Positions 5,475 to 26,047 are shown, counted from the stretch's first letter. The stretch: DNA of 64,000 nucleotides from Planctomycetota bacterium (GCA_965223265.1 OZ244999.1:1-64000), one strand, 5' to 3'. The notes: generated by a model not told the origin, from the letters alone. A program made the numbers and translations.

Positions 5475-5525
5475 CGACCGAGAGCTCCACCGCGACGATG
5501 AGATTATTCTATGCTCGTTGAGGGT

Positions 5526-5543
5526 TGCATGTTATAGCATGCA
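5526..5543. promoter_or_regulatory. 18-bp near-perfect palindrome, putative operator in a divergent intergenic region
   Basis: TGCATGTTATAGCATGCA matches its reverse complement at 16/18 positions; AT-rich against a GC-rich background. Confidence 0.45.
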
Positions 5544-5686
5544 CCCGGTCCAGCCGGTCAGGGATTTCCCGATAGATCCGAGACCGCGCCGCGGCTAGTT
5601 TTAGAGGCGCGAGCCGAGCACTCAAGCAGAGCGGCCGCGACGCACGCGAGCGGCCAACGGCCTACCTTTTACGGAGGATTTTTAGG

Positions 5687-5890
5687 ATGTCAGTCGCAAA
5701 GGTTACGGAAATCAGTTCGACTTCGAAGAAGAGCTTCGATGACGCCATCGAGGCCGGCATCGACCGCGCGAACAAGACGCTGGACAACATCTCGGGGGCG
5801 TGGATTCAAGAGATGAAGGTTGACGTCGACGGCGGCAAGATCAAAGCCTACCGCGTCAACATGAAGGTGACGTTTGTACTGAAGGACTAA
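5687..5890 (+). CDS. Dodecin family protein
   Basis: 67 aa, GGAGG RBS; SVAKVTEISSTS..SFDDAI..GI.RA.KTL...YRVNMKVTF pattern. Confidence 0.88.
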   Translation: MSVAKVTEISSTSKKSFDDAIEAGIDRANKTLDNISGAWIQEMKVDVDGGKIKAYRVNMKVTFVLKD

Positions 5891-5974
5891 GGACTCAGTG
5901 CGAGCCTGACATTGACGCTCGGTGCGCATTGCGCCGTAGCGCCGCGACTCGTCGTCAGCCGTCGCCTGCATCTC

Positions 5975-6697
5975 GTGGAAATCTATCCAGTTCTCGACAT
6001 TCGCGGTGGCGTCGTGGTTCACGCTGTGCGCGGGCAACGTGACTCCTACCAGGAGCTGCGTAGCCGCTGGGCTCAGAGCGCCGAACCGGTAGAGGTGGCG
6101 GCCGCAGTGCGCCAGCAGTTCGGCCTTTCGACCTGCTATGTGGCGGATCTTGACGCATTGGGTGGCGGTCAGCCGGCGCTGGAGACGTTCGCTGCCTTGA
6201 AGCGCGCCCGGTTTCGACTACTCGTCGATGCGGGAAGTCGCGACGTCGCCAAGGCGGAACTGTTGTTCGAGCACGGCGTCGACGAAGTTGTGGTCGCGCT
6301 CGAGTCGAGTCCCGAGCTGGACGAGCTCGCCGCGTTGGTCGAGAGGTGCGGCAGCGATCGCATCGTCTTTAGCCTCGACTTGATGGGCGGCGTTCCCATG
6401 GGTACGAAGATGCCGTGGGGTGTGACCGAGCCGCGGACGATCGCACGAGCGGCCTACGGCGCGGGTGTTCGCCGCATGATCTTACTCGACCTGGCGTATG
6501 TTGGCAGCGACGCTGGTCCCGTCCTCGCCAAGCTTCTTGGCGAGTTGAACGACCAGCACCCTGACGTGTCGTGGATCACCGGCGGGGGCGTGCGCAGCAT
6601 CGCCGACCTCGAAGCGTACGAACGTGCCGGGGCGAGCGCCGTGCTCGTGGCCACGGCGCTGCACGACGGTCGTCTTGTGCCGCCGCTTGCCTCCTAA
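5975..6697 (+). CDS. HisA/HisF-related TIM-barrel protein, Orf17-like (C1 cluster)
   Basis: Probable GTG start 5975. IYPVLDIRGGVVVHAVRGQRDSY, YVADLDA, VDAG, FSLDL, LLDLAYVGS, GGGVRS, LVATALHDG motifs. Confidence 0.85.
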   Translation: MEIYPVLDIRGGVVVHAVRGQRDSYQELRSRWAQSAEPVEVAAAVRQQFGLSTCYVADLDALGGGQPALETFAALKRARFRLLVDAGSRDVAKAELLFEHGVDEVVVALESSPELDELAALVERCGSDRIVFSLDLMGGVPMGTKMPWGVTEPRTIARAAYGAGVRRMILLDLAYVGSDAGPVLAKLLGELNDQHPDVSWITGGGVRSIADLEAYERAGASAVLVATALHDGRLVPPLAS

Positions 6698-9050: not shown

Positions 9051-12000
9051 TCAGTCACACGCTGAGTGCGATCGGCAACTGAGAATATCGGGCGTCGGAT
9101 CGAAGCCGCAACCGGCGAACGGCGCCGGCGGGGTGACACTTTCGCCACGGAAGAGATGGAGCAGAATGTTGAGCGCGTCGGTGACGTTGATGCGTCCGTC
9201 GTCGTTGGCGTCCGCGGCACTCAGGCAAGAAGGGATTTCGCCGCGGCGGAAAAGGAGATTCAGCACCTGCAGCGCATCGGAGAGATCGACCGTAGAGTCG
9301 GCATTGACGTCGGCGCGCCGGAAGCGGCTGCCTGAGCCGAGAGGTGTCCGCGCCCACGACTCGACGCCAACCTCCGCGAGGACGTCGAAGTTTTCGCCAA
9401 GATAGGCAGCACGCCGCATCAAGGGGCGATTGGGATCATCGAAATCGACACGCTCGTCGAAGAGCTCGACGGCGTGGATCGTTCCGTCGACTGCTGCCAG
9501 GTCGACCGGCGGATCGAGAAGGACCCAGTAGCGCACGTCGGAGTTGTGCTTGAACGCGGAATAGACGAGTCGAAAGTAGTCGCCCGTTGACCGGGTTGCT
9601 CCGCCGATCGAAAGAGTCGCGCTCTCGAGCATTGCTGGCGAGGTCGAGAAGATCGTCCGATCGTCATCGAAGCGCTCTTCGAGCACCAGAGTGGTTCCAT
9701 CGGCCAGCGTCGCATCGATGCGTCCGGCTGGAAGTTGAGTGTAGCGACACGATCCGTAGCGCAGCACTGGGTCGCCATCGAGCTGACCCTGAATGGCTTC
9801 GTTGCCTGGATCAGCGGTCAGAAAGTCTTCGTCGATTGTGAGACGCGCGTCGATGGGCTCGTCGCCGTCGGCGCGGAATTCGAGAGGAGTGACGATCTCG
9901 AGTAGCAGCTCCCGTGCTCCCGGTAGCTCGAAGAACTGCGCGTAGGTGAAGCGGTACGTGGTTTGGCGGTTGCTTCCTGGTGAGCGCTGCACGGTGAAGC
10001 GACCGGAGTCGACGGGGACCGCCACCTCGCGCCCCGGCCCGACGATGACCTCGTCAAAAATCTCCGCAGTAAAACCTTCGGCGAGCGTCTCGAGGCGAAT
10101 GACACCGCTCTTCAAACGCACAGTCGATTTTAGCTGCAGTTCGTCGCGTGGTCCGCGGCCAGCGCCGGCGAGCGCGAAGACACCGCAGGCCGTCGTATTC
10201 GGTGGAATCTCAAGCTCGAACACCGGTGCAGCCGGGAGATCGCCGAGGAGGAACGGTCGCACCTGTTTCACCGCGAGCTCGCCGTCCGGCATGAATTTGA
10301 ACTCGAGGTCGAGGAGAACGTCTCGGCGTGAGAATTCTCCGAGCTCGAGTTCGTAGTTTTGGTCGATGTGCCACATGAGCTCACCGAGCTCGTGCAGCTG
10401 CGCGTCGCTCAAGACGTACTCTCCCGCGGGAAGAAGCGACGAGACCTCCACGCGAACGATCCGTGTGATGCGGCCTTCGATCACTTCGAGCAGGGTTCTC
10501 TCGGCGCGCACGCCAGGGTCGGGGCTGACGACGCTTTCCTCTCCAGCCTGAACGGTGATCACGAAGCGTCGATCGAGAGCGTTCGACGGGTTGCCCGTGA
10601 AAGCGACGCCATTGGCCGCCTCGTCAATGAATGTACGGTTGACCAGGATGCCCATCGACGTCGGCTCCTGAGGGATGCCGAAGAACTCTCTCTCCTCGAA
10701 GGCTCGGAAGTTCCAGAGACTGCTCCAGACTCGTTTGAGAGCTCGTGCGATCGTGCGTTCGTTTTCCCGCGTCGCATCGCACAGCGAAGGGCCAGCCGTG
10801 TCGGCGTCGAGGTCGTCTGCTACACAGCCTGACGTGGAGTCATAGAGGCCCGCGCCGCTGAAGAGGAGTCCGTCCTCGACGTTTGATGACGAGCGGAATC
10901 GAACTCGTGTCGTTGGTTCGGCCCCCATCACTTCGGCGACGCGGGCGGCGATCGTCGCAACGAGCGCGGGATCGACTTGGCTTTCAGTGCGCATGTGGTC
11001 GCGAAGAGCGCTCAGCGCCTGCGCGCGGAAGCGAGAGTCTGTTCGAAACGCCTCGAAGCTCAGCAGTTCGGCGATGTATTCCTCGTAGCTCACGAGGTGT
11101 GTGGCGTTAGCCAACGACGGCAGTTCATTCGAGCGCAGAAACTGTACGTAATATCGCACGGGAATTGCGAATCCACGTTCGATGTATTGGCTCCACGGGG
11201 GATCTTGAAGAATGCGCTGCAGCCTGGCGAGTCCTGTCGCTTTGCCACCGACACGCGACACACTGAGTCCAGTTTCCGGTTCCGCAGCAGCATCGAAGGC
11301 AGAGATCTCAAGGAGGGTCGGGAGGGCGCCGAACTGCTCGTCGCGTCGTGGCTCGATGGGCAGCGTCGGTCGGCTTTCCCAGAATTCTATCGCTTCCGCG
11401 ATTTCCCCGACGCGCACGAGGAGGCGATCGCTCTGCACCTCGAGTCGAACAAGCTCGCCTTCGAGAGGTGCGAATGTCTCGAGTGCCGTCGCCGAGAAAG
11501 CGTTCGGCGTGCCGCGGCCTGCGGTCCGGATGAGCAGATGGCTCAAAGCGGTCTGCGGTTCCGTCGTGACAACACCGCCGAAGACGCCTTCGATATCGCG
11601 CGGCGCATGGTCGAGAACGAGGATGTCCTGGAAGCTGATTTCGCCGCCGGAGTTGGCCTGCTCAAGGGCGTCGGCGTCAAGGATTCGAACGCGTCCGAAA
11701 CCAACGCCCGTGGTGTAAGCTTGATACGCTCTCGCGGTGTCTCCACAGATGGTGAACTGCGTGTTCGTCCACGTACTCGAAGCTTGTCGGGCGAACGTGT
11801 TGTCAGGGAAGTAGCAGAGGGCGCCCAGATCGAACGCCTGAGTCAGAGCGGTGTGCACTGCGGTGACCTCGTCTTGCGAGAGGACTTCGTCCGTGCTCGA
11901 CGTATCGACGGCGACGGTGAACGCGAATCTCGGATCTGTCTCCGATCCGGGATCGACCTCGACCTCGACTACGACTCCGACGTAGTAGTCGCGCGTGCGT

Positions 12001-14555
12001 CGACGGCCGACGAGCGTGTTGTACTGCTCCGCCGTCAGCGCTGGGAAACGATCGGGAAACACTCGCGCGAGGAACTCCTGGTGCAGCGAGTAGCGTTTTG
12101 TGTTCTGGAACAGCGGCGGCAGTAGAGACGGATCCTCCGGGCGCGCGGGGACGATGTACTTGTTCGCCCGCCTATCGCTCGACGAGCGAATCGAGAGCGC
12201 GTCGAAGTCATCGGGGGTACACAGCGTCTCGAGAAAGTCGATATCGAGGCGACGCGTCTCGCTCGTGTTGGTGAGGTGGGTGATCTCGGCGGAGTTCCGA
12301 TCGAGCGAGACCACGTCGACGTCGCCGTCGCTGTCGAAATCGCCGTGAACGACGTAGCGCGGCCCGTCACCGACGGGGAAACGCAACTCTCTGCGGAACA
12401 GGCCGTCGCCCTCGCCGATCAGTATGGTCACCGAGCTGCTGTCTTCATCGGCGGTGACGAGGTCCGTGGCGCCGTCTCCGTCGATATCTGCAGCGCGCAC
12501 GGAATATGGTTCAACACCAATTGGAAAGAGCTGTGGCGGACCAAACGTTCCGTTGCCACTGTTGAGGATGACGCCGATCTCGTCGAGTCCCTCAATGGCT
12601 GCAGCGATGTCGGGCGCGCCGTCGCGGTTGAAGTCACCGACCGCGACCGAGCGCGTGCCACCGGAAATCGGGTTCACCCCCAGGAGAGAAAATGACGCAG
12701 CCCCATCGTTTTCGAGCACCCAGATTTCGGAGGAGGTTCTCGTGGCAACAGCGAGGTCGGAGTCCCCGTCGCCATCGAGATCGGCAGCCTCGAGCTCCCA
12801 GGGTTCACGCCCGACAGCAACCTCGAACGAGTCGGCGAAAGAGCCGCCGCCGTCGTTGAGAATTATGCTCAGGTTGTTCCCCAGCTGGTTGGCGCTGATG
12901 AGGTCGGGCGCACCGTCACTGTTGAGGTCGCTCGTCTCGACAGAGAACGGTCGCTGGTCAGTCGTCGCGTAGAGCCACCTCTCGAACCCACCCGTACCGT
13001 CATTGAAGAACACCAGCAATTCGTTGTTGAGGCGATCAGCGAGCACGATGTCGACAGCGCCGTCGCGGTCGAAGTCGGCGGAATCGATGAAGTTAAGATC
13101 TCGTCGGCCGTTGTTCGCTGCACTGGACGGGGTGTCAGGCGGCGTCGTTTCGACCGGTTGATCGAGAAAACCATCGCTGCGGCCGAAGAGGAGAGAGAAG
13201 TTTTTGTTGAAGTTGCCGTTCGCGGTGGCCACGTCGAGCCTGCCATCGCCATTGAAATCAGCGACGGTGCCACTGTGGGGGCGAATGGTGATTCCCACCG
13301 TTGTCCGCTGCAGATCGAGAGCCACGCCGTCGCCGTTCCAGAGCAGATTGAGTTCGTTCGGGCTCGAGAGCGCGAGTTCGAAGTCACCATCGCCGTCGAA
13401 GTCGCCGGCGCGAACGTCCAAGATTCCTCGGCGTACATTCGGGGCAACCGCGGTGGTGCCAAACTCACCTGCACCATCGCCTGCCAGAACGCGTACTTCG
13501 CCGTTGATGGCATCGAAGATGGCGATGTCGATGTCACCGTCGGCGTCGAAGTCGTCGGCTGTAACGACGCGCGTGACGATCTCGAACGTCTTGGCGATCT
13601 CGAATGTCCCATTGCCGTCGCCCGCTAGTAGAGTCACGTCTCGACTGTTGGTCGTGAGGACGTCATGGGTGCCGTTGCCATCGAAGTCGCCTACACACAG
13701 CGCCGTAGGGCGTCGTCCGGTCGGGAAGGTGGTCGCGGGATCGAATGTACCATCGCCACGATTGCGAAAAGCCATGAGTTCGCTGGCTGTGGATTCGGCG
13801 ACGACAAGGTCGAGGCGAGAGTCTGCGTCGACGTCGGCGACGTCAACGTCGACCGGCGTGGGCCCGACCTGGACGACTGTCGGCGCGTCGAAGGTGCCGT
13901 CGCCGCGGTTGGTGAACACCTGGGCGGCGTCCTCGCCAACGTTGATTGTTACGAGCTCGGGACGACCGTCGCCGCTGAGATCTCCCGTTTTGACGATGCG
14001 CGTTGCAGAGAAGACTGCATACTCCACCGGCCTTTCGAAGGTGCCGTCGCCGCGATTGAGAAAGACGAGAAGAACTGTTGAGTTGGCGCTGACAACGTCG
14101 CCGTCACCGTCGCCGTCGAGATCGTCTGCAGTCAGCCCCGAAAGATCGAGGCCAGCGTCATACTCGACGCCCGGAAGGAATTCGCCGTCGGGCCCCGTGA
14201 CGAAGACGACGAGCGTTGACGCTTTCGTGTCGTCGCGAAATCCGGTCACTAAATCGTCGATGCCGTCGCCGTTGACGTCGGCGATGACGACGTCGCGCGG
14301 CTCGAACGGCAGGGTCAAGCTCTGCTCGCCGAACCCAAAGACGATGGGGTCGAGCTCACACTCGTCAGGCGTACCGTCGTCATTGCAATCAGCAGCTGAT
14401 CCAGCAACGACCTCCTCGGTGTCCAACGTTCCGTTCAGGTTGCAGTCCGCTGCGCGCGTGGTCGCCGCGAACGACAACGCGAAAAGACAAAGTGTGCTGA
14501 GGAGAGCGGAAAGACAGGGTGGTGAGGAGCGCTTTCCTGTCGAACTCGGTGTCAT
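9051..14555 (-). CDS. Large exported protein: FG-GAP repeats + phosphohistidine/PEP-pyruvate-binding (dikinase-like ATP-grasp) module + dockerin-like C-terminus
   Basis: Signal peptide; DCN..G..D..E motif; many D(F/L/V)(D/N)GDG..D repeats; QTALSHLLIR, VGGKATGL, GFAIP, RSSSNVEDG..FSGAGLYDS, KRVWSSLWN.RA..ER, ANGVAFT, DLEFK, KQVRP; RRADVNADSTVDLSD tail. Confidence 0.82.
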   Translation of the reverse strand: MTPSSTGKRSSPPCLSALLSTLCLFALSFAATTRAADCNLNGTLDTEEVVAGSAADCNDDGTPDECELDPIVFGFGEQSLTLPFEPRDVVIADVNGDGIDDLVTGFRDDTKASTLVVFVTGPDGEFLPGVEYDAGLDLSGLTADDLDGDGDGDVVSANSTVLLVFLNRGDGTFERPVEYAVFSATRIVKTGDLSGDGRPELVTINVGEDAAQVFTNRGDGTFDAPTVVQVGPTPVDVDVADVDADSRLDLVVAESTASELMAFRNRGDGTFDPATTFPTGRRPTALCVGDFDGNGTHDVLTTNSRDVTLLAGDGNGTFEIAKTFEIVTRVVTADDFDADGDIDIAIFDAINGEVRVLAGDGAGEFGTTAVAPNVRRGILDVRAGDFDGDGDFELALSSPNELNLLWNGDGVALDLQRTTVGITIRPHSGTVADFNGDGRLDVATANGNFNKNFSLLFGRSDGFLDQPVETTPPDTPSSAANNGRRDLNFIDSADFDRDGAVDIVLADRLNNELLVFFNDGTGGFERWLYATTDQRPFSVETSDLNSDGAPDLISANQLGNNLSIILNDGGGSFADSFEVAVGREPWELEAADLDGDGDSDLAVATRTSSEIWVLENDGAASFSLLGVNPISGGTRSVAVGDFNRDGAPDIAAAIEGLDEIGVILNSGNGTFGPPQLFPIGVEPYSVRAADIDGDGATDLVTADEDSSSVTILIGEGDGLFRRELRFPVGDGPRYVVHGDFDSDGDVDVVSLDRNSAEITHLTNTSETRRLDIDFLETLCTPDDFDALSIRSSSDRRANKYIVPARPEDPSLLPPLFQNTKRYSLHQEFLARVFPDRFPALTAEQYNTLVGRRRTRDYYVGVVVEVEVDPGSETDPRFAFTVAVDTSSTDEVLSQDEVTAVHTALTQAFDLGALCYFPDNTFARQASSTWTNTQFTICGDTARAYQAYTTGVGFGRVRILDADALEQANSGGEISFQDILVLDHAPRDIEGVFGGVVTTEPQTALSHLLIRTAGRGTPNAFSATALETFAPLEGELVRLEVQSDRLLVRVGEIAEAIEFWESRPTLPIEPRRDEQFGALPTLLEISAFDAAAEPETGLSVSRVGGKATGLARLQRILQDPPWSQYIERGFAIPVRYYVQFLRSNELPSLANATHLVSYEEYIAELLSFEAFRTDSRFRAQALSALRDHMRTESQVDPALVATIAARVAEVMGAEPTTRVRFRSSSNVEDGLLFSGAGLYDSTSGCVADDLDADTAGPSLCDATRENERTIARALKRVWSSLWNFRAFEEREFFGIPQEPTSMGILVNRTFIDEAANGVAFTGNPSNALDRRFVITVQAGEESVVSPDPGVRAERTLLEVIEGRITRIVRVEVSSLLPAGEYVLSDAQLHELGELMWHIDQNYELELGEFSRRDVLLDLEFKFMPDGELAVKQVRPFLLGDLPAAPVFELEIPPNTTACGVFALAGAGRGPRDELQLKSTVRLKSGVIRLETLAEGFTAEIFDEVIVGPGREVAVPVDSGRFTVQRSPGSNRQTTYRFTYAQFFELPGARELLLEIVTPLEFRADGDEPIDARLTIDEDFLTADPGNEAIQGQLDGDPVLRYGSCRYTQLPAGRIDATLADGTTLVLEERFDDDRTIFSTSPAMLESATLSIGGATRSTGDYFRLVYSAFKHNSDVRYWVLLDPPVDLAAVDGTIHAVELFDERVDFDDPNRPLMRRAAYLGENFDVLAEVGVESWARTPLGSGSRFRRADVNADSTVDLSDALQVLNLLFRRGEIPSCLSAADANDDGRINVTDALNILLHLFRGESVTPPAPFAGCGFDPTPDILSCRSHSACD

Positions 14556-14641
14556 CGATCCTCACGGTTTTCAGCGATCTTCGGACATGAGCCCAGCTCG
14601 GAACTACGAACCAGCCAACGGATATCTTGGGACGTGACGTC

Positions 14642-17600
14642 CTACAGTTCCCGCAAGCAAGTTGTCGGGCATGTGGCGACCGGGATGCAAGCCCCTCCCA
14701 TCGCGTGCGGGGCACCGCCGCGGAACAGGTAGAGGAGCATGTGCAGCGGGTCGGACAAATCGACGGTCGTGCTGCCGTCGGCGTCCATCAGAGCTAGGTT
14801 GCTCTGGGCTTCGAGCGTTCCATCACCACACGGCAGCGAAAACGCCTGGCCCTTGAAGAGGTAGATCAGCAAGTTGATCGGGTCAGAAACGTTCAGGCGT
14901 GCGTCCTGGTTGATGTCCCCCGGCACCTGAAACCCTAGCTGCAGTGCCGGATCCGAGACGCTGTTGATCGCGCCTGGCGTGCCGCCTAGAGGTTTCGAGC
15001 TGGCCCAATTGAGAACCTCGTTGCCGAACTCAGTCGCTGTACGCCGCTCGAGGCTGCTTCCCTCGCCGTCAGGGCTCTCTGGCCACGGGGCGCGATCGTT
15101 GAAACGGACCATGTCGACGACCGTGAATCCCTCCGGCGCATCTCTCGTAGGTTTGAGAAGCCGAAGCCGCTCGCCAGTATTGGATAATTGCCCTCCGAAC
15201 GGTCCGACGATAGTGGCCGCGGGGTCAATGTCGAGAGCGACGCGATAAATCTCTGGGTCGGTCGGAACGATCAGTAGATATCCGGAGGCAGGAACGATCG
15301 AACCGTTTGGGAAAAAGAAATCGTCCTGGCCGTTCGGCGCATTGATGCCGGTCAGTTCCCAGCCCGAGATGTCAATCGGGCTCGCCGTGGTATTGACGAG
15401 CTCAATGAACTCGTCTTCGTCTTGGTCTTCGATCGGGTGGTAGTGAACCTCGTTGATCGCGATCTGAGGCGTACGTGGAGCCGCGTTCGCCTCGCCCAGG
15501 GTCGGCGAGTTTAGGGGGAAGAACTCGAGGCCAGTGCTGGTCTCGTGACGACCGACCGTAGCGCCGGCTTCGACCGCGCTGTACGAGACTGCCGCGATGT
15601 ATCCACTGAACGAGCCGTCCGGGTGGCTCGCTGACAAGAAGAGCTCACCGCCCGTTGGACTCAATGAAAGTCCCAGGTCGGCAGTGGAGAGGACGACATA
15701 CCCGCCTGGCGGCAGTGACGTTGCAGCCGGCACGCGGGCTTCAGCCAGCGCGCTCAAGTCATCTCTTGAAGTGCTGAGGTACCAGCCGCTGACGTTCACT
15801 TCGCGATCGGTGAAGTTGACAAGCTCGATAGAACCCGGACCGTTCCCGGCCACGTCGTCCGCGCCCCGCGCCATCACTTCGTTCACGACGACGCCGCCAT
15901 GCGCGGGCTCAGGGTCCACCGCTCCCGGCGATCCATCGAGTTCAGCGCTTGCCCGCCAGCTTCGCGGATCGTCTGGATCGCTGTCGATGGCGTCCAATAC
16001 GAGTGAGTACCCGAAACCGCTGGGGCCGATCGGCCAGAAACCAGAACTTTCGTAATTCACAGAAAACAGGACTTCGCCCTCTCCGTCGACGAGCTCCACG
16101 CGCTCCCCGTTCCCGGACAGCCGCGCGGTGTAGGTGCCGAACGGCTCGACGTCCGGGTAGCGCTCGCGGAACGATGGTTCATCGGCAACGAGTACGATGG
16201 ATTCGCCGGGAGCGAGCATGTCTCCCGCCCTGAAGGCGAATGAGATTCCATCGCTGAACTGTACGCCGTTGAGATCGACTGCGGTGCCACCGGGGTTTGT
16301 GAGTTCCAGAAACTCGAAGTTGGCTCCAGCGACGTTCTCGTCGCCTTGCGCGTCGTACATCATTTCCGAGATCACGATGAAACCGGGTTGGAAGCCGCTG
16401 ACGATGAACTGCGCTTCGTTCAGAGCACTCCAGACAAGCTCTGTCCCCTCTTCGGACTCCATGCTCGCGAGCGTCCGCGCTTTCAGCAGCCCGTGGCTGT
16501 CGAATCGGATTTCGCCTCCCGCGTAGAGTTGAGCGCTTGGAGACACCTCGCCGGTGCCGAACGTGCGTGGGTCGCTACCGTCAAGTGTGTAGTAGATATC
16601 ACCGACTGTGTCGCCCGGTAGGGAAATCGTCACCGCCGTCTCGCGGGCGATCTCACCACCGTGTTGACTGAACGTAGGCGCATCGACCGGCGGGTAGTAG
16701 CCACGGCGAACGAACTGTGACAGGACGATGTCGGAACGTTGGCGGAAGTAGTTCTGAACCCATCGGAGTTCATTCAACCAATCCTGGCGCGAATACGGAG
16801 GGGACTTTCGTGTGTCGCCCCACCGGGCCGACTCGAGGAGAATCGCTTCGTTCACCTCGCGGGCGCGTCGCATGTAGATGTCGGCGGGTCGATTTGCCTC
16901 GGGCTGAGACGGGTGCCAGGCGCGCCCGCCATCGACATGCAGCACCCCGCCATTGAAGAAGTGACGATGGATGTGATCGGCAAACAGTGTGCGGTAATCA
17001 GCGTTGATTCCTAGACGCGTATAGAACTCGGTTGGTGTGTCCGACACGAAGACACCTGTCTGATTGACCGAAGCGTTCTTCAGCACGTGCTCGGCGTCCC
17101 AACTGAAAAAGCGATAGCGACCATCCGGGGCGCGACGGTATGTCGCGTACCAGTTGTGCCGTGGCCAATCGTCGTTGCCGCAAAAGATGTTGACGATCAT
17201 GTAGTCGATCAGATTGGGCACGTCGAGCATCTCCGCTACTTTGAGGTAGCCCGAGCTGCTCTCGACGCCGTTATTCAAACGAGATCGCAGTTCCTTCCAA
17301 GCGATAGCGTTTCCCTCGACGACGTTGCCGCCGGTGTGTTTGAGGACGTCATACTCCGACTTTAGCCCGCCGTAGTACGCGGCCGAGAAGGAGTCATCCG
17401 GTCGTTCGTGAAGATCATAGACGCCCCAGTAGATGCCGTTGAGGAAAAGGTGGACGAACCGGCCGTGCGGCGCCACGCCATCGGTCAGGATCTGCAAATC
17501 GCTGACAAATTGGTCGCGGATGTACTGAGCCCGGATGCGCTGGCCGTGGTCGGGGTGGTTCCAGGTCAAGTTGAGCCCGGCGTCGAGGACCAGAGCGTCG

Positions 17601-19741
17601 AACTCGCGTACCGGTGAATCCGCGTAGAGTTTGTAGGTGAGTCTTGAGGGGCCATAGCGATTCTTGAAGAGAAGTCGCATAGAGACCTTTTTCGACTTCC
17701 AGCCGCCGGTGCTGCTGCCACCTTGGATACGGATGCCACAGTTGGCCTGAAACCCGACTTCCCCCTGTAGCGGGTCGATGAATTCAACGGATGTCGGCCG
17801 TTCCCAAGCCAGACCGCTGGAGCTTGGATTCTGGTAGATCCCCGTGGCCGGGTCGAACAGATGGACGTCATGCGTCACGACGGACACGGTCGGCAGCGCC
17901 ATGAGTCCTTCCCACGCCAGTTCCGGATTCGGGTCGACGACGTCCGGATCGACCTCGTAGTCGGAAGTTGTGCCTTTCCACGGATCGGGCATGCCGGCTG
18001 GAACTTTCGGTTGGCGAAAAACTCGGTCGGCGAAGACGTAGGAATGCGTCACCACCTCCGATGGAATCAACCCGTCCTTGTAGACAGCCGCGCGGACCAT
18101 TGCGATCGAGCGGTCTGCCAGTGGCTCCACACGCACGCGATCCGTGTAGACCTCGCCGTTCTCCGGGCCTGGTGTCGTCCCGTCCGTCGTGAAGTAGAGT
18201 GTCGCGTTCGGCTCGAGAGTCGAGAGCGTGAGCTCGAACGGTTCAGTTTGGAAGCTCCGTTTGACGCTGAAGCGAGGCGGGCGCGTGAAGCCATGGAGGT
18301 CGATCGTTGCCGCATTCTGTTCCCCGGGCGTCGCCGTCGCGAAGTAGCCGATCTGGCCGTCTTGTGCGACACCGTACGAATAGTCGGCGCGCTGCGCTGG
18401 AAACTCGAACTCGCTGACAAGCGTTCGAGGCGACTCCGTATCGAACAGGCGCAGTGTTTCGCCGTTCTTCTCGAGAGAAAAGTTCGTGTGCAGCTCTTCA
18501 CCGAACCTGCTGCGATCCTTGCGCGACGCGAAGACGACGAGCCGCTCTCCTGCACCCAGGAGGAATCCAGGGAAACGCCACTTCTCCGCGTCGGCCGAAT
18601 CGGTCACGGTCCAGCCACCAAGGTCGACTGCAAAGGAACTCAGGTTCCTCAGCTCGAACCAGTCTTCGTTGTCGCCATCGGAATCGAGTAGACCGACCCC
18701 GTTGGCGGCAAGCACCTCGGTGAAAACGATGTTTGGTGCCGGTCGGTTTGGATCAACCTCGTAAGTCCACCCGTCGCCATCGGGAACAAAACTGTTCGGT
18801 CTTCGGACAGCGTCTGTGATGTCATGGTCGCTGGACCACGTCACGTGTACGGTCCCGGCTGGCAGCGATGGGAAGGCGAACCGATAGGCTTCTTCGTCCC
18901 CTGCGAGGCGCGTGACGGAGGAGGCTGGCACGTCTCCGAGCAGGAGATCCGTTGCATCCACTCCCTGCACGGGTTCATCGAAAACGATGTCGATGCTCTC
19001 GAGCGACTTCAAGACCGCGAGCGGTGTAGGGATGATCTGTGTGATCGTTGGCGGCGTCTGATCTGGCCCGAGGGGGTCGAAGATCTCGACGTCGAGGTAG
19101 TAATCGTTGCTCGTAGGACTGAAGTTAAAACCCTGTGCGGCGATCACGTTGCGACCGGGAACGAGCATCGCCGCCGCGTCGGAGATGACGAAGTTCCGAA
19201 AGCTCCTCGGCGGATGCGTTGAGTTCGACACACTGTCGAACGCAACAAAGTCGCCGGGCTCGCCGGCGACGCGTTCGCGCACGGCTTCGACACCGTTGAT
19301 CCAGAGCAAGAGGCCGTCGTCGAAGCGGGCGCTGAGGGTCAACTCAGTCACCTCTTCGACGTCGCGAATGAAGAACTCGCTACGCAGAAAAACAGATGAG
19401 TAGTTGCCGCGCATTGGCGGTTCGGCCGTGGCGAGGTCCGTTGTCACGGTCACTGCTGTGCCGTATCCGATGGGAAGTGCGCCGCTGAGCCAGGTGCTAT
19501 CGTCGAACTCGGGCTGGCGCCACGCCGTGGGATCTGGAGATGAGGCTTCTTGCGTTCCCGGCAGATACTTCCACTCGCTGCTTCGCTCCAAATAGAGAAT
19601 AAAATCGCCGCGAACGGCGGTTGCTGAGCCCAGCACCACGGCCATGACGCAGGCCTGCTGCAGTGCGGTGCGTAGCCTTTGTCTGTAGACCGCGCCACTG
19701 GATCGACAACCGTCGCTGAGTTCGTTTCGCCCAAGTCTCAT
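14642..19741 (-). CDS. Exported CotH-like kinase with lamin-tail (LTD), FN3-associated and Ig-like domains and a dockerin-like tail
   Basis: Probable ATG 19741 (GGAG RBS). LTD motifs (FTEVLAAN..DWFELRN, ISEMMY..EFLELTN, INEVHYHP..EFIELVN); CotH motifs LFLNGIYWGVYDLHERPD, DWPRHNW, WDAE, ESARWGD; PGDINQDARLNVSD tail. Confidence 0.85.
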   Translation of the reverse strand: MRLGRNELSDGCRSSGAVYRQRLRTALQQACVMAVVLGSATAVRGDFILYLERSSEWKYLPGTQEASSPDPTAWRQPEFDDSTWLSGALPIGYGTAVTVTTDLATAEPPMRGNYSSVFLRSEFFIRDVEEVTELTLSARFDDGLLLWINGVEAVRERVAGEPGDFVAFDSVSNSTHPPRSFRNFVISDAAAMLVPGRNVIAAQGFNFSPTSNDYYLDVEIFDPLGPDQTPPTITQIIPTPLAVLKSLESIDIVFDEPVQGVDATDLLLGDVPASSVTRLAGDEEAYRFAFPSLPAGTVHVTWSSDHDITDAVRRPNSFVPDGDGWTYEVDPNRPAPNIVFTEVLAANGVGLLDSDGDNEDWFELRNLSSFAVDLGGWTVTDSADAEKWRFPGFLLGAGERLVVFASRKDRSRFGEELHTNFSLEKNGETLRLFDTESPRTLVSEFEFPAQRADYSYGVAQDGQIGYFATATPGEQNAATIDLHGFTRPPRFSVKRSFQTEPFELTLSTLEPNATLYFTTDGTTPGPENGEVYTDRVRVEPLADRSIAMVRAAVYKDGLIPSEVVTHSYVFADRVFRQPKVPAGMPDPWKGTTSDYEVDPDVVDPNPELAWEGLMALPTVSVVTHDVHLFDPATGIYQNPSSSGLAWERPTSVEFIDPLQGEVGFQANCGIRIQGGSSTGGWKSKKVSMRLLFKNRYGPSRLTYKLYADSPVREFDALVLDAGLNLTWNHPDHGQRIRAQYIRDQFVSDLQILTDGVAPHGRFVHLFLNGIYWGVYDLHERPDDSFSAAYYGGLKSEYDVLKHTGGNVVEGNAIAWKELRSRLNNGVESSSGYLKVAEMLDVPNLIDYMIVNIFCGNDDWPRHNWYATYRRAPDGRYRFFSWDAEHVLKNASVNQTGVFVSDTPTEFYTRLGINADYRTLFADHIHRHFFNGGVLHVDGGRAWHPSQPEANRPADIYMRRAREVNEAILLESARWGDTRKSPPYSRQDWLNELRWVQNYFRQRSDIVLSQFVRRGYYPPVDAPTFSQHGGEIARETAVTISLPGDTVGDIYYTLDGSDPRTFGTGEVSPSAQLYAGGEIRFDSHGLLKARTLASMESEEGTELVWSALNEAQFIVSGFQPGFIVISEMMYDAQGDENVAGANFEFLELTNPGGTAVDLNGVQFSDGISFAFRAGDMLAPGESIVLVADEPSFRERYPDVEPFGTYTARLSGNGERVELVDGEGEVLFSVNYESSGFWPIGPSGFGYSLVLDAIDSDPDDPRSWRASAELDGSPGAVDPEPAHGGVVVNEVMARGADDVAGNGPGSIELVNFTDREVNVSGWYLSTSRDDLSALAEARVPAATSLPPGGYVVLSTADLGLSLSPTGGELFLSASHPDGSFSGYIAAVSYSAVEAGATVGRHETSTGLEFFPLNSPTLGEANAAPRTPQIAINEVHYHPIEDQDEDEFIELVNTTASPIDISGWELTGINAPNGQDDFFFPNGSIVPASGYLLIVPTDPEIYRVALDIDPAATIVGPFGGQLSNTGERLRLLKPTRDAPEGFTVVDMVRFNDRAPWPESPDGEGSSLERRTATEFGNEVLNWASSKPLGGTPGAINSVSDPALQLGFQVPGDINQDARLNVSDPINLLIYLFKGQAFSLPCGDGTLEAQSNLALMDADGSTTVDLSDPLHMLLYLFRGGAPHAMGGACIPVATCPTTCLREL

Positions 19742-20236
19742 CGCGAGCTCCGTATCGACCGGCGCGTCACTCGATCCACCCATCATCCACACGACCTGTG
19801 TCCCGAGCACTAGCGTCCGCTATCGAGTTTGCCTGATCAAAGCGCGAAACTACGCCTTGAAGCTTCCCGCCGAGAACACCGAATGACCCAACCGATTCTA
19901 ACTGCCGAGCCTATGCCGTCTATGCCTTTTCGTGTGCTGTCTGGTTTTTGACGTGTCCCGACAGATGGAGACTCGGCTTGATCCAGGTGGGACGGAGAGT
20001 GGTGCCCAGGCCGTAAGCACGGTTCCTCCCCGCGCCAGCGCCTCTGTGTGCAGTGAACGTGTTGACTCGTGTTTGGTCCCGCGGGCGTGCCGGAGATGTC
20101 AATGCGATGGTTGGATCGCGGGCGGGAGCGGCCAGAAACACGTGCGACTTGCGTCACCGCAGCCGTAGTCTTGTTAGAAGCGTTCGTCTGCAACATGTCG
20201 CCCTTTCGCATCGCGTCTGCCCACCGTGAGGAAGGA

Positions 20237-20270
20237 ATCTCCGGCGCGGTGTCATCTCCGGCGCGGTGTT
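20237..20270 (+). repeat. 2 x 17-bp tandem direct repeat
   Basis: ATCTCCGGCGCGGTGTC followed by ATCTCCGGCGCGGTGTT, upstream of the glycosyltransferase. Confidence 0.7.
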
Positions 20271-20353
20271 GGCGTCCGCGGCCACTAAGTCTACGCGAGC
20301 GCTTCGAACGCGCCGCCTACGTTCCTCGTTCGGAACGAACCAAACGACTGACG

Positions 20354-21439
20354 ATGCATAGTGTTCTTCTCAACGCACGTTTTCTCGTGCAACCTGTCAC
20401 AGGGGTCGAGCGCTTCGCTCGCGAGATGGCTCATGAGCTGCGACAGCGGTGCAGTTCAGTCGAGCTTCTCGTGCCTACAGGCGCGACGGTGCTGCCGCCG
20501 GTGAGTGGGCCATTGCAGCGCTACGGCGTGCTGCGCGGGCAGCCGTGGGAGCAATTGGAGCTCGGCCGATACGCACGCTGCGGTGGCCGCGTTCTCGTCA
20601 ACCTGGGCCAGACCGCTCCGCTTCGAGCGACACGGCAGATGGTCACGATCCACGACCTCGCTGTCTTCCACGAGCCACGATGGTTCACAAGGCGCTTCCG
20701 ATCTTGGCATCGCTTCCTCCTGCGCCGCCTCGCGCGCGAGGCGGCCCGTATCGTCACCCTCAGCGAGTTTTCCAGAGGCGAAATCGTCAAGTACCTTGGG
20801 GTGGAGGAGGACCGCGTCTCGATTGTTCCCGGCGCCGTCGCGTCGCAGTTTCTGCATGCAAGCAGACCCGCTGTCGAGGGCGAGAGGTCGTTCGATTTCG
20901 CCTCGGCGCGCCCTTTCGTTCTCACTGTCTCCTCGCGGTCGCGGCGAAAGAATCTCCGGCGTCTCCTTCTCGCCTATCAACAGCTTGCTCGCGCGGACGT
21001 CGATCTCTTCGTCGTGGGGGTGTCTAAACGCGACTTGGTTGCAGCTGGGCTCGGTGCCTTGATGCAGAAGGCGTCGGGCGTTCACGCGCTCGGCCGCATC
21101 GAGGATGCCGAGCTCGCCTCGCTCTACGGTCGCGCCGTCGCTTTCGTGTACCCTAGCCTCTACGAAGGCTTCGCTCTGTCTCCGCTCGAAGCGATGGCCG
21201 GTGGTTGTCCGGTGGTGACGTCAAACATCGCTGCGCTGACGGAGGTCTGCGGCGCCGCGGCCGAGTACGTCGATCCAAATGACATCGACTCCATCGCTAG
21301 TGGCCTGAGGACAGTTTTAGATTCCACTCGGCGCGCGGCCGAGCTCCAGCAACTCGGACTCGAGCGTGCGCGAGCTTTCAGCTGGGAGAAGTCCGGCGCC
21401 GAGTTCGCAGCGATTGTCCGCGAAATCGTTTGCACTTAA
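20354..21439 (+). CDS. Glycosyltransferase family 4 (GT-B)
   Basis: Probable ATG 20354; NARFL.QPVTGVERFA, TIHDL, SEFSR, RKNL, YPSLYEGFALSPLEAMAGG, FSWEK. Confidence 0.9.
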   Translation: MHSVLLNARFLVQPVTGVERFAREMAHELRQRCSSVELLVPTGATVLPPVSGPLQRYGVLRGQPWEQLELGRYARCGGRVLVNLGQTAPLRATRQMVTIHDLAVFHEPRWFTRRFRSWHRFLLRRLAREAARIVTLSEFSRGEIVKYLGVEEDRVSIVPGAVASQFLHASRPAVEGERSFDFASARPFVLTVSSRSRRKNLRRLLLAYQQLARADVDLFVVGVSKRDLVAAGLGALMQKASGVHALGRIEDAELASLYGRAVAFVYPSLYEGFALSPLEAMAGGCPVVTSNIAALTEVCGAAAEYVDPNDIDSIASGLRTVLDSTRRAAELQQLGLERARAFSWEKSGAEFAAIVREIVCT

Positions 21440-21484: not shown

Positions 21485-22987
21485 TTATGTGACCAATGCA
21501 CGCAGCATCCCGGCCGCTTTGCTCAAGGTTTCGCGATACTCGGCTTCGGGACTTGAGAGCGCGACGATGCCGCCGCCGACCGGAAGCTGTAACCACCCGC
21601 GGGACTGTGTCACCGTGCGAATGAGAATATTGGTCCCCATGTCGCCGGCGAAGCTCATCCATCCCATGCTGCCGCAGTACGCCCCCCGGCTTGTCGGTTC
21701 TAGCTCGGCGATGATCTCCATCGCACGAACCTTCGGTGCACCCGTGATCGAGCCTCCTGGAAACGACGCCTCGAGCAGATCGAACGCCCCGAGACCTCCG
21801 CGGAGTTGTGATCGCACCTCTGACACCAGGTGGTACACCGTCGGGTGTCTTTCGATCTCGAAGAGGCGAGGAACCTCGACACTTCCCGGCTCGGACACCT
21901 TCGAGAGATCGTTGCGCAGCAGATCCACAATCATGACATTCTCAGAGCGATCCTTCTCGCTTTCGATGAGTGCAGCGCCTTGAAAGGGATCATCGAGCTG
22001 CGAGTAGCCACGCGGGCGAGTCCCTTTGATTGGGCGCGTCACGACTCTGCCGCGCTCGAGCGACAGGAACTGCTCGGGAGAGGAGCTTGCGATGACGCGG
22101 TCGCCGGTATGAAAGTAACTCGCAAAGGGAGCTGGGTTTCTCGAGCGCAGTCGTTCGTAGAGAACGTCAGAAGAGATCTCGGCGGGAGACAACAAACGTT
22201 GGGCGAGGTTGACTTGGAACACGTCACCGGCGTGGATGTATTCGATGGCTTGTCTTACGGCCGCGAGGTACGACTCGTGCGAAAAATTGCTCACCAGACC
22301 CGGTGGGCCGGAGACCGGCCACGACGGTGCAAGCTCATCCGTGGCGAGTTGAGAGTCAGGGAGGGGGGCGGCAGGCGGCGGCGTCGCTACCTTCAGGGCG
22401 CGCGACAGTTCGCGGTTTCGTACCTTCGCGAGGCGCGACCGCAGAGCCGCGTTCGTCTCGGGAAAACCGTGCGCCACGAGGTGGGCGCAGCTCTCGACGT
22501 GGTCGAACGCGATCACCCAGTCATAGAAACCAAGAACCATGTCTTCGCCGCTGAATTCGTCCCAGCGACATGATGGGATACGTTCCAGAGTACGTGCCAG
22601 GTCGTATGCAAAGTAGCCGGCCGCGCCGCCTTGAAACGGAGGAAGGTTGCGAACTCTTGGCGCTCCCCAGGCGCCGAAGCGCTCCTTGGCGGCGACGAGC
22701 GGCGGATCGTCCGTGACGTCGTGCGCGTGATACGGCGAATCGAGTCGCGACGGGTCATCTGCCCGCAGCTCGGTGGTTTGTCCGCGGCGCGACACCAAAA
22801 CGGCAAACGGGCTTGCTGCCAGGTAGGAGTAGCGTCCGAATCGAGAATCCGGGGCCGCGCTGTCGAATAGGATCGCGTAAGGGAGATGCGCTAGACGCCG
22901 GAATGTCCACCAAACATCAGGCGTCGGCGTCAGCCGTGTGACGGTCGGAGAGACGTCGCGTCGAGTTCGGGTGTGCGTCGGGTGCAT
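21485..22987 (-). CDS. pabB: Aminodeoxychorismate synthase component I
   Basis: LFDS, GRYSY, PFQGGAAGYFAYDL, GDVFQVNL, SSSPE, PIKGTRPR, ENVMIVDLLRNDLS, FPGGSITGAPKVRAMEII, NILIRT, GGGIV. Confidence 0.88.
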   Translation of the reverse strand: MHPTHTRTRRDVSPTVTRLTPTPDVWWTFRRLAHLPYAILFDSAAPDSRFGRYSYLAASPFAVLVSRRGQTTELRADDPSRLDSPYHAHDVTDDPPLVAAKERFGAWGAPRVRNLPPFQGGAAGYFAYDLARTLERIPSCRWDEFSGEDMVLGFYDWVIAFDHVESCAHLVAHGFPETNAALRSRLAKVRNRELSRALKVATPPPAAPLPDSQLATDELAPSWPVSGPPGLVSNFSHESYLAAVRQAIEYIHAGDVFQVNLAQRLLSPAEISSDVLYERLRSRNPAPFASYFHTGDRVIASSSPEQFLSLERGRVVTRPIKGTRPRGYSQLDDPFQGAALIESEKDRSENVMIVDLLRNDLSKVSEPGSVEVPRLFEIERHPTVYHLVSEVRSQLRGGLGAFDLLEASFPGGSITGAPKVRAMEIIAELEPTSRGAYCGSMGWMSFAGDMGTNILIRTVTQSRGWLQLPVGGGIVALSSPEAEYRETLSKAAGMLRALVT

Positions 22988-23020
22988 GGCAAATTCATAT
23001 CCGGAGGTGCTCCGGACGGA

Positions 23021-24430
23021 TCAACTTGGTTTCGAGCGGCGTCTTGTGTGTCGTTCGATCTGACTCTCTTCCTCGCGCGTCAGGAACCCCCAGCGCAAGG
23101 ACTCATCCTGAGCATAGTTCTTTCCCAGCGTCATAGCAGTCACTGCTTTCGCCATTTCGTAACCGAGATAGAACGCGTGGGCAGGGTCTTCGACCGTCAG
23201 TTGTTCGAAAACCTCGAATGGGTCGGTTCCCGTGACGTGAATTCCGGCGCTCATAGCGTGGATGCGATCGTTCTCCGCGAAGAGGCGGAAGTTCTTGTCC
23301 TTGATCTCGGCTGCCAGTCGGCTCAGCACGTCGGCGCCAAAGGATTTCACCGTCGGGTCACGCAAGAGATGGAGCAGCGGTTCAACATGCTTCGGCAGCG
23401 CCGAGTTCTTGACGGCGTAGTGCACGAGGCGCCGCGCCAGATCGAGTTCACGAACGCACGTTTGTGCCCAGTGGATGACTTCCGTGGTGAGGACGCTGCG
23501 GATCGAGAGTTCCTCACAGAACCCGAGGAGGATCACGTTGACGGCGGCTGAGTCTGCCCCGGTGAGCTCGGTGAGGTTGCCGACCCCCATCATCATGGCC
23601 GCTTCCGGGAAATCTTTGCGCGTCTCTAGATAGCGTGCGAGCGACTGTGCGAACCCGAAGCCGATCGGCTCGAGAACTGGGTCAAGTCGATATCGCTTCC
23701 CCCAAGCGTCCAGTTGCGACGCGGTTTCCGCCATGCCGCGCAGAGACGACGGCTCATCAGGGATGACGACGAACTCGCACTCGAGGTCCTTCGCGACGGC
23801 AACATTGGACGCGTTGACGCTGAGCACGAGCTCAGCGCCAGCTTCGACCGCGTCGACGATTTCTTCTGGATGGAGACTGTCGATGGAAATCCGATGCCCT
23901 TCGGCCTTGAGCATGCGAACGACTTCGCCGACTCCCGTAAATGGGCCGCCAGGGTCACAGCCGACGTCGATGACATCCGCTCCAGCTTGACGCAGTCGCG
24001 CGGCGCTCTCACGGATCTCCTCCAGCTGTAGCTGTGGGGCATGATTGATCTCCGCGATGATCTCGATCGAGAAGGAGCCGTCGTAGCGACCGCCTCCTCG
24101 GCTTTCGCTGCCGAAGAAACGCGGCAGATCGCGGAGGTCCTTAGGGCCGCGCTTGACATCGACTGCGAACGCTGTTCGCAGAGTCTCTAAGTCGCCGCTG
24201 ACATAGCCGGGAAGAATGACGCAGTCGCACTCGGGTGCCGATCGAACTTGTCTGGAGATCCAATCGACCGTCATCAGAGCCGCAACGGCGATGTTGAGAA
24301 CGACGATCTCGTAACGGATGTGCGTCTCCGCGGACAGTTCCCGGAGGGTTGTCTCGAGGGCCGGCGCCGCTAGTTTGCCGGTGAAAAAAGTCAAGTGCTG
24401 AGACTTGCCGATCTCGTTCAACGCACCCAC
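23021..24430 (-). CDS. Dihydropteroate-synthase-like protein, Orf20 (H4MPT biosynthesis)
   Basis: TGKLA, VAALMT, GPKDLRDLP, IIAEI, GADVIDVGC, SIDS, DPVLEPIGFGF, MMGVGNLTELT.AD, HAFYLGYEMAKA...YAQDE.LRWG. Confidence 0.88.
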   Translation of the reverse strand: MGALNEIGKSQHLTFFTGKLAAPALETTLRELSAETHIRYEIVVLNIAVAALMTVDWISRQVRSAPECDCVILPGYVSGDLETLRTAFAVDVKRGPKDLRDLPRFFGSESRGGGRYDGSFSIEIIAEINHAPQLQLEEIRESAARLRQAGADVIDVGCDPGGPFTGVGEVVRMLKAEGHRISIDSLHPEEIVDAVEAGAELVLSVNASNVAVAKDLECEFVVIPDEPSSLRGMAETASQLDAWGKRYRLDPVLEPIGFGFAQSLARYLETRKDFPEAAMMMGVGNLTELTGADSAAVNVILLGFCEELSIRSVLTTEVIHWAQTCVRELDLARRLVHYAVKNSALPKHVEPLLHLLRDPTVKSFGADVLSRLAAEIKDKNFRLFAENDRIHAMSAGIHVTGTDPFEVFEQLTVEDPAHAFYLGYEMAKAVTAMTLGKNYAQDESLRWGFLTREEESQIERHTRRRSKPS

Positions 24431-25954: not shown

Positions 25955-26047
25955 GACTGTTTCGTCCTCACAGCGCCGCAGCGAAGGTGACGACCATGCA
26001 ACGTTCGAGTTCTGTGTAGCCGACGAGTGACGCTCTCAAAAAGCTCG

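Follow-up and report, generated by a model that had tools for sequence, protein, structure and literature searches.

The DNA analyzed here is a stretch of 64,000 nucleotides (nt), called the window below, that forms the start of the 9,179,496-base (9.18 Mb), single-contig genome of a planctomycete; coordinates are window positions. On its minus strand lie two giant genes, P0001 and P0002, which a preliminary description had taken to encode one surface-anchored phosphorylation complex. We analyzed both genes, their paralogs in the same genome and their relatives in other genomes. On balance, we favor the view that P0001 and P0002 each belong, independently of the other, to one of two hugely expanded families of exported phosphotransferases, and do not form a dedicated two-enzyme complex.

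Two giant genes for exported-looking phosphotransferases

Both open reading frames (ORFs) are intact. P0001 spans 9051-14555(-) and encodes 1834 amino acids (aa) from an ATG start; P0002 spans 14642-19810(-) and encodes 1722 aa when read from the GTG at 19810, or 1699 aa when read from the ATG at 19741. The same-strand genes are separated by a spacer of 86 base pairs (bp; 14556-14641(-)), which carries GAGGA 5 nt before the P0001 ATG and in which no terminator-like hairpin was listed. Upstream of P0002, a sigma-70-like promoter match (19895-19922(-)) agrees at 9/12 positions, and the number of such matches is not above that in shuffled sequences. A look for sequencing data containing this genome listed four DNA entries, all of one study, and no RNA entry.

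P0001 begins with a predicted Sec signal peptide (residues 1-35, 14451-14555(-)), in which a basic n-region and a hydrophobic core are followed by an Ala-rich site directly before a Cys-rich 'DCN...DCN...PDECE' motif (residues 36-66, 14358-14450(-)), the predicted start of the mature protein. Export signals were judged throughout by a hydropathy heuristic alone, and a hydrophobic stretch was found no more than 30 residues before the DCN motif in 33/33 giant paralogs of P0001. Propellers made of FG-GAP/VCBS repeats fill residues ~70-770 (12246-14348(-)), where Pfam reports 11 FG-GAP_3 stretches (E 3.6e-78). Then come a conserved alpha/beta subdomain (residues 771-938, 11742-12245(-)), a swivel domain of the phosphohistidine type (residues 939-1050, 11406-11741(-)) with the invariant His1006 (codon 11538-11540), a dikinase-type ATP-grasp domain (residues 1075-1440, 10236-11333(-)) with invariant GGK, RSSSNxED and QxRP motifs, and conserved beta-rich C-terminal domains (residues 1441-1739, 9339-10235(-)). 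The protein ends in a dockerin-like tail with two Ca-loop repeats and four Cys (residues 1740-1834, 9054-9338(-)).

Pfam recognizes the ATP-grasp domain as PPDK_N (residues 1100-1434, E 8.1e-18) and the tail as Dockerin_1 (residues 1748-1796, 30.9 bits against a cut-off of 22.9). NCBIfam returned far sub-threshold matches to phosphoenolpyruvate (PEP) synthase alone (23-40 bits against cut-offs of 598-883). The subdomain at 771-938 and the domains at 1441-1739 have no Pfam match, and the excised segments 771-970, 926-1090 and 1436-1740 gave no Pfam family at E≤10. For 771-938 and 1441-1739, fold searches returned hit lists filled by the ATP-grasp domain, which is no sign of a new fold in either.

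A model of the P0001 core (residues 771-1740, from a 46-sequence alignment) reached a mean pLDDT of 88.7. Its ATP-grasp domain superimposed on rifampin phosphotransferase 5hv3 (model residues 303-721; Z 28.5, root-mean-square deviation (rmsd) 2.6, 297 residues aligned) and on PEP synthase 2ols (model residues 306-724; Z 26.9, rmsd 2.5, 295 aligned). Residues 939-1050 (model 169-280) superimposed on the C-terminal His domain of 5fbu (755-867; Z 10.9, rmsd 3.2, 101 aligned), with His1006 at the start of a helix. When the ATP-grasp domain was compared with the genome's own PEP synthase by hhalign, the two aligned at 96.7% probability with GGK, RSSxxED and QxRP in register. The engine of P0001 is a His domain followed by an ATP-grasp domain, an order unlike that in PEP synthase (PEPS), pyruvate phosphate dikinase (PPDK) and rifampin phosphotransferase (RPH), and Pfam found no PEP/pyruvate-binding TIM barrel in the protein (no PF02896 match).

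Across 120 members of the dikinase family, His1006 is kept in at least 97%, and of the 134 columns in which conservation reaches 95% or more, P0001 retains 133. The paralogs of the genome vary most in the propellers (mean identity 32%), compared with 57% in the His domain and 60% in the ATP-grasp domain, the two most conserved parts. This combination of a conserved engine with variable propellers fits one engine aimed at many ligands. An insertion in the ATP-grasp domain (residues 1244-1259, window 10900-11000(-)) carries two invariant Cys and is without counterpart in the genome's PEP synthase, and more invariant Cys stand at 1457 and 1603; these residues would fit disulfides in an exported enzyme.

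In P0002, numbered here from the GTG, a long basic n-region and a 14-residue hydrophobic core follow the ATG at 19741, and a signal peptide is predicted by the heuristic at residues 24-67 (19610-19741(-)); homologs align only from about residue 50-70 onward. Pfam finds Fn3_assoc and CHB_HEX_C (an Fn3_assoc/CHB_HEX_C_1 module lies at residues 525-591, 18038-18238(-)) and four lamin-tail domain (LTD) stretches (E 8.4e-55), the best of which is at residues 1143-1253 (16052-16384(-)). A complete CotH kinase fold occupies residues 591-1040 (16691-18040(-)). The C-terminus (residues 1625-1721, 14648-14938(-)) is a dockerin-like four-Cys tail of a type found genome-wide, recognized by a tail profile of the genome (see below) and not called by Pfam; the excised tail and the N-terminus of P0002 gave no Pfam family at E≤10.

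Pfam places CotH (PF08757) at residues 762-915 (E 1.5e-17), covering profile positions 46-220 of 322 only; with a cut-off of 23.8, the whole of P0002 scores 64.5 bits and the excised domain 69.6 bits. When the PDB was searched by sequence with P0002, with a 15-member CotH profile and with a canonical CotH paralog, nothing matched. A structural model of residues 591-1040 (15-sequence alignment, pLDDT 84.9) had Bacillus cereus CotH 5jda as its top Foldseek match in the PDB (E 6.6e-12, TMq 0.59, TMt 0.73, 428 columns) and B. cereus CotH 5jd9 (E 1.2e-11) as its second, and far behind came PI3K (E 2.4e-3) and Golgi casein kinase (E 1.6e-2).

Only four columns are common to at least 85% of the 53 CotH genes of the genome. 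Two of these are Asp881 (codon 17168-17170; 51/53) and Asp905 (codon 17096-17098; 52/53), both of which P0002 has and which are invariant in 15/15 of its close homologs. They are spaced 24 residues apart; the inactivating substitutions D228Q and D251A of B. subtilis CotH are 23 residues apart (PMC7821199). From this spacing and the invariance, and not from a residue-by-residue alignment, we infer that D881 and D905 are the equivalents of D228 and D251. With their family-invariant catalytic residues kept, P0001 and P0002 both look active as judged from sequence.

Thus, much of the preliminary description held. Two co-oriented giant genes are present 86 bp apart on the minus strand, each with a different phosphotransfer domain that is borne out by Pfam and by the folds (PPDK_N in P0001, CotH in P0002), and both products look exported by the heuristic. 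The CotH catalytic residues, whose possible loss it had raised, are in place within a fold that matches B. cereus CotH.

A genome-wide tail and clustered genes

The tails of P0001 and P0002, which had been described as the same Cys-containing, dockerin-like tail, are indeed related: they share 31% identity over 67 columns (BLASTP E 1e-5), contain four Cys each and match one profile. This profile was grown from the tails of the dikinase paralogs and used to search 7146 ORFs of the genome. It matched 322/7146 ORFs, 265 of them at the C-terminus and with a median of four Cys per tail, and the tail was present on 35/35 dikinase paralogs and on 49 of the 53 CotH genes. Because 322 proteins carry it, the shared tail does not mark P0001 and P0002 as partners; it is a genome-wide tag and no sign of a partnership between the two.

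Of 481 candidates, 150 were scored with Pfam, and these gave at least 137 Dockerin_1 matches. Cohesin-like matches in the genome amounted to three over the Pfam cut-off and seven at E≤0.01, and two proteins with such matches also bear tails. Genes for cohesin-like proteins lie, for example, at 9.019, 1.526 and 2.393 Mb. A 603-aa protein (L115:1111-2922(-), G000:C1 ~9.019 Mb) has dockerin-like modules at both ends with a cohesin-like match between them, and a protein at L116 combines cohesin-like N-terminal modules with a tail; either could serve as an adaptor or a scaffold. In a complex prediction, the P0001 tail and the cohesin-like module of the former (L115 residues 335-500) scored 0.12 against a mark of 0.34.

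The genome encodes 35 dikinase-like paralogs, of which 33 are 1794-1902 aa long and two, of ~1070 aa, are without propellers, and it has 53 CotH genes. The 33 giant, exported-looking dikinase-like genes make up about 2% of the genome's DNA, and tandem arrays of them are seen at 4.62-4.64, 8.23-8.25, 8.27-8.28 and 2.31-2.32 Mb (G000:C1). Ordinary PEPS and PPDK are encoded elsewhere in the genome.

A CotH gene is the immediate neighbor of 3/35 dikinase paralogs and lies within three genes of 7/35. Tail-bearing genes cluster genome-wide, with 62 adjacent pairs against 14.5 expected, and when the CotH labels were shuffled among tail-bearing genes the P values were 0.26 for adjacency and 0.086 for a distance within three genes. 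Once the clustering of tail genes is allowed for, CotH and dikinase genes are adjacent no more often than chance gives. The CotH partners of the other pairs rank 10, 27 and 38 among 84 P0002 hits and match P0002 in the LTD stretches only. Since these partners are not P0002-like, the pairs are not copies of a CotH-dikinase unit that includes P0002-P0001.

Within three genes of the 35 dikinase copies, the only large recurrent group was that of tail-bearing proteins (21 ORFs beside 15 copies), six of which are CotH proteins. Smaller recurrent neighbors were DUF1501, PSCyt/PSD, sulfatase and PQQ-type propeller proteins; we rejected them as specific partners of the dikinases, as they are ordinary high-copy planctomycete families.

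Pairing in other genomes and a gene trio in Myxococcota

The pairing of CotH and dikinase genes is not conserved in Planctomycetota. For the best P0002 homologs (CotH-domain identity 41-57%), we examined 14 surrounding stretches of 8.5-19.9 kb from 12 genomes, and a dikinase core was found in 0/14. From the other side, we examined 78 dikinase loci outside this genome, taking in at most 10 kb to either side and 876 kb of flanking DNA in total. A CotH gene was present in the flanks of 4/78 loci, of 3/33 loci with at least 5 kb on both sides, and of 0/30 loci with a dikinase frame of at least 1500 aa. In G001, the complete genome nearest to that of the window (same family; 7.9 Mb, 4 contigs), there are four giant dikinase copies and 70 CotH matches, and 0/4 of these copies lie within 10 kb of any CotH match, the closest CotH-to-ATP-grasp distance being 15.8 kb. 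A pair without conservation was one of two outcomes that the preliminary description had named as refuting its complex, and these counts, together with the 3/35 paralogs (P 0.26) and the 322 tails of the window's own genome, speak against a surface-anchored phosphorylation complex of P0001 and P0002. The GT4 glycosyltransferase gene that it had noted is present, divergent from P0002, at 20069-21439(+), but none was found in the 92 loci (78 dikinase and 14 P0002-homolog loci), and we regard it as a local neighbor only.

P0001-like proteins carry the source labels Planctomycetota/Planctomycetes. Both families, dikinase and CotH, are present in all 24 searched genomes of four families (f1, f2, f3 and f5), which are kin. 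Among 40 genomes searched, 28 other than the window's own had a dikinase match, with one to nine matches in each, against 35 in the window's genome. Small homologs with open frames of ~700-830 aa match the His-plus-ATP-grasp part only (core residues ~180-680; for example G001:C4:6442975-6444315, G025:C6:65737-67053 and G005:C72:5328-6638) and are possibly stand-alone relatives of the dikinase engine.

Three of the four CotH-positive dikinase loci come from Myxococcota. There, a short dikinase gene (768-818 aa) is followed on one strand by a 370-aa gene and then by a CotH gene (423-443 aa), and the dikinase matches residues 5-666 of the P0001 core at about 40%. We searched 301 Myxococcota genomes for the middle protein, which had matches in 19 of them, with 30 loci returned. 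At 11 of these 30 loci, in 10 genomes, the order of dikinase, middle gene and CotH gene is constant (L081:7133-15984; also L078, L080, L119-L129 and L138). Twelve further loci (the L125, L130, L139-L148 group) have a CotH gene beside the middle gene and no dikinase within the 1.5-kb flanks. The remaining seven are weak middle-gene matches with neither enzyme; one of them (L132) is from an unpublished genome (G236), on which we make no claim. All of the trio loci seen are from metagenome-assembled genomes, and identity of the middle protein among them drops to ~27-30%. This dikinase/porin/CotH trio, at 11 loci in 10 genomes, is new here.

The middle protein is a member of Porin_O_P: 22/22 aligned members match PF07396 at E≤1 (best 8.2e-13), the first member on its own scoring 15.3 bits against a cut-off of 20.9, and its ESM Atlas model matches Porin_O_P clusters with a TM of 0.75-0.81. 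It has a signal peptide and the terminal aromatic residue typical of outer-membrane barrels. A lipobox is found on 2/2 complete trio dikinase genes and, by pattern, on 7/9 trio CotH frames, the other two having a Cys after a hydrophobic run. The trio at L081 has ftsE, ftsX and a gene for an M23 peptidase to one side of it and a gene for an S41 protease to the other. On four contigs (G088:C10, G043:C105, G042:C2 and G119:C362), one of which has the trio, the distance between porin/CotH clusters and genes for the VTC polyphosphate polymerase is 3-5 kb. Among control genomes, CotH, VTC and DUF4956 all match in the same three outside Bacillus (Bacteroides thetaiotaomicron, Corynebacterium glutamicum and Methanosarcina acetivorans), which fits a CotH-VTC-DUF4956 gene set.

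The synteny of the trio links the dikinase and CotH families at the family level. In the window, no porin gene lies between or beside P0001 and P0002. A search of the window's genome with the trio porin profile found nothing, and its sole Porin_O_P match lies at 7.26 Mb, far from any dikinase copy.

The other neighbors of P0001 and P0002 in the window are unrelated to them: SDR, 3-keto-disaccharide hydrolase, anthranilate synthase and enzymes of the tetrahydromethanopterin pathway. A C1 neighborhood of the tetrahydromethanopterin type (21485-31705 and 601-6697) is broken by the two giant genes. In its two parts lie genes for MCH (29010-30077), PTPS (26048-26569), a CitG-like protein (26970-27908) and a DUF6513/pterin-binding protein (23021-24430), and for an ATP-grasp_3 protein (1720-3015) and a HisA/F-like protein (5912-6697). 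Further on, another large gene of the secretome type (34162-38430(+)) encodes 1422 aa that include F5/8 type C and laminin-G modules, and a 792-aa ORF (40695-43073(+)) joins the large subunit (E 2.9e-230) and the medium subunit of a diol/glycerol dehydratase in one frame.

Interpretation and comparison with known systems

Judged by its anatomy, P0001 would be exported by Sec and would take a phosphoryl group from a nucleotide onto His1006 at the ATP-grasp site, and then pass it to a ligand that the variable FG-GAP propellers and the conserved flanking domains may hold. P0002 would be a Sec-exported kinase whose lamin-tail and Fn3-like modules could aim the CotH fold at a surface or polymer target. 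Both products may be docked or sorted by the tail that they have in common with some 320 further secreted proteins. Co-transcription of the two genes is possible, and their adjacency would reflect the clustering of tail-bearing secretome genes. Both enzyme families probably draw on the same extracytoplasmic supply of a phosphoryl donor, as the Myxococcota operon suggests, and the trio suggests that phosphate, pyrophosphate or polyphosphate may cross the outer membrane.

Several observations weigh against this reading of P0001 and P0002 as independent exported enzymes. Co-transcription of P0002 and P0001 is likely, given the short gap on one strand, the good ribosome-binding site and the lack of a terminator-like hairpin. 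CotH genes are enriched near dikinase paralogs when the labels are shuffled among all genes (P=0.014 for adjacency, P=0.002 within three genes) or among genes of at least 700 aa (P=0.068 and 0.025, respectively). All three immediate pairs (three cases only) are co-oriented with the CotH gene upstream, and this shared order and strand is the one feature that speaks for more than chance. The Myxococcota trio shows that both families can work as one unit. As for function, export of P0001 and P0002 is inferred from heuristics, we know of no ATP source outside the cytoplasm, and VTC, which might bear on donor supply, has no match in the window's genome; a search for a TLC ATP/ADP translocase matched in no genome, its controls included. 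The His domain of P0001 has no match to Pfam PF00391, and in hhalign, His1006 falls on the phosphorylated His of the PEP synthase encoded in this genome, with a weak score (20.9, E 0.01; equaled in 0/20 column shuffles).

The complex proposed originally would have P0002 and P0001 co-transcribed, docked by their tails on one scaffold and phosphorylating envelope proteins or polysaccharides at the surface. We consider this very unlikely, even though it would account for the gene layout, the tails of one family, the three cohesin-like matches above the Pfam cut-off, the uniform order of the immediate pairs and the conserved Myxococcota operon. What decides against it is that pairing is absent from the giant-dikinase loci, from the P0002-homolog stretches and from the G001 copies, that 32/35 paralogs are without an adjacent CotH gene and the observed adjacency is within the expectation for tail genes, and that the tail is found on hundreds of proteins and the CotH genes of the other pairs belong to other subfamilies. 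Instead of binding cohesins as a dockerin does, the tail itself could serve as a signal for sorting or secretion that an export or attachment machinery recognizes, in which case it would tell us only that its carriers use one export route. The number of carriers, their mostly C-terminal tails with a median of four Cys and the small number of cohesin-like matches agree with such a signal; Dockerin_1, however, matches the P0001 tail and a further 137 or more sites in the genome, and some tail proteins also bear cohesin-like modules, so that we think this explanation possible but rather unlikely.

Another explanation links the two families, rather than P0001 and P0002 in particular, by their chemistry: the dikinases would form ATP outside the cytoplasm, from AMP, phosphate or pyrophosphate and a phosphorylated donor, and the CotH kinases would spend it. 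The dikinase reaction of PPDK is reversible and can run towards ATP. An OprO/P-type porin gene for phosphate anions stands between the dikinase and CotH genes at the 11 trio loci, with all three products exported, VTC genes lie near porin/CotH clusters, and both families are expanded together in the window's genome and co-occur in all 24 searched genomes of the four families. That co-occurrence is among kin and is not independent, however, and the trio is just as compatible with two enzymes that consume one donor in parallel. Moreover, the window's genome has no VTC match, a sub-threshold DUF4956 match only and no trio-type porin, and we rate a coupled phosphoryl economy as quite improbable. 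We find it scarcely credible that the phosphotransfer domains have lost catalysis and serve for binding, with the proteins acting as adhesins. ATP is not expected outside the cytoplasm, and both proteins are rich in binding repeats (FG-GAP, LTD); however, the motifs are invariant in 120 dikinase members, the Asp pair is kept in 51 and 52 of 53 CotH paralogs, and the engine is the most conserved part of the dikinases (57-60%, against 32% for the propellers).

For P0001 and P0002, read as independent family members, the useful result is negative: neither adjacency nor a shared tail makes a system. The undescribed phosphorylation system that the preliminary description looked for is not borne out for this pair, and what stands of it is a link at the family level, the Myxococcota synteny of dikinase, Porin_O_P and CotH genes. 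A broader idea, which we regard as speculative and on the whole unlikely, is that diderm bacteria own an undescribed extracytoplasmic phosphoryl-transfer system of an exported His-dikinase, an OprO/P-type porin and an exported CotH kinase, that this planctomycete has enlarged both enzyme arms to about 90 dockerin-tagged surface phosphotransferases (35 dikinases and 53 CotH proteins), and that the window pair is a local instance. If true, it would mean a deliberate supply of ATP outside the cytoplasm, or ATP regeneration driven by polyphosphate or pyrophosphate. ATP-dependent phosphotransfer is held to be cytoplasmic in bacteria, and if the exported enzymes are active, a phosphoryl donor must exist outside the inner membrane. 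Given a culturable carrier, the Myxococcota operon would be a compact module for asking what that donor is, and it could show the role of 'spore-coat' kinases in bacteria that form no spores.

A full-text literature search (supplements aside) returned no description of a propeller-dikinase-dockerin family, of a CotH-dikinase pair or of a dikinase/porin/CotH trio. Giant proteins of Omnitrophota with PPDK_N resemble P0001 in having a dikinase-type ATP-binding domain within very large, probably surface-exposed proteins; the passages of the preprint that deal with them list the domain only as a pyruvate/PEP-interconverting activity and describe no His-then-ATP-grasp engine, propeller fusion or paralog family (10.1101/2023.11.21.568195).

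P0002 is like Bacillus CotH (PF08757; 5jd9/5jda) in its fold over the whole 450-residue domain and in the spacing of the Asp pair. It is unlike it in being exported-looking, 1700 aa long and flanked by four lamin-tail, Fn3-like and dockerin-like modules, in being one of 53 copies in a non-sporulating planctomycete, and in sharing 14% identity with the solved chain. The coat proteins that Bacillus CotH acts on are in the mother cell, with ATP available, so that this enzyme is no precedent for action outside the cytoplasm. Closer in setting is SIR_1594 of the Streptococcus intermedius pel locus, a secreted CotH-domain protein of a non-sporulating bacterium, which has polyphosphate-polymerase-domain and MgtC-like partners and is tied to a surface polymer and to phosphate metabolism (PMC12345266). 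The system differs from that of P0002 in that it is Gram-positive, has a VTC-like polymerase partner and includes no dikinase.

The tails resemble the cellulosomal type I dockerin (PF00404) in the two Ca-loop/helix repeats and, for P0001, in a Pfam score above the cut-off. They are unlike it in their four conserved Cys, their Pro-rich C-terminal extension and their occurrence on 322 proteins of a non-cellulolytic planctomycete. Among the His-dikinases (PEP synthase, PPDK and rifampin phosphotransferase; 2ols, 1dik, 5hv1/5fbu), the ATP-grasp domain of P0001 finds its counterpart at Z 19-28.5 and its His domain at Z 10.9. P0001 departs from these enzymes in placing the His domain before the ATP-grasp domain, in having neither the TIM barrel nor a rifampin-binding domain, in its exported appearance, FG-GAP propellers and dockerin tail, and in the two-Cys insertion that PEP synthase lacks. 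Its domain order is that of the plant and algal glucan, water dikinases GWD and PWD (EC 2.7.9.4/2.7.9.5), which we take to consist of substrate-binding modules, a His domain and a C-terminal ATP-binding domain; the likeness is one of domain order alone, with no GWD sequence or structure compared, and unlike GWD/PWD, P0001 has no CBM45 or CBM20 by Pfam. GWD and PWD act inside plastids, where ATP is present, whereas P0001 looks exported.

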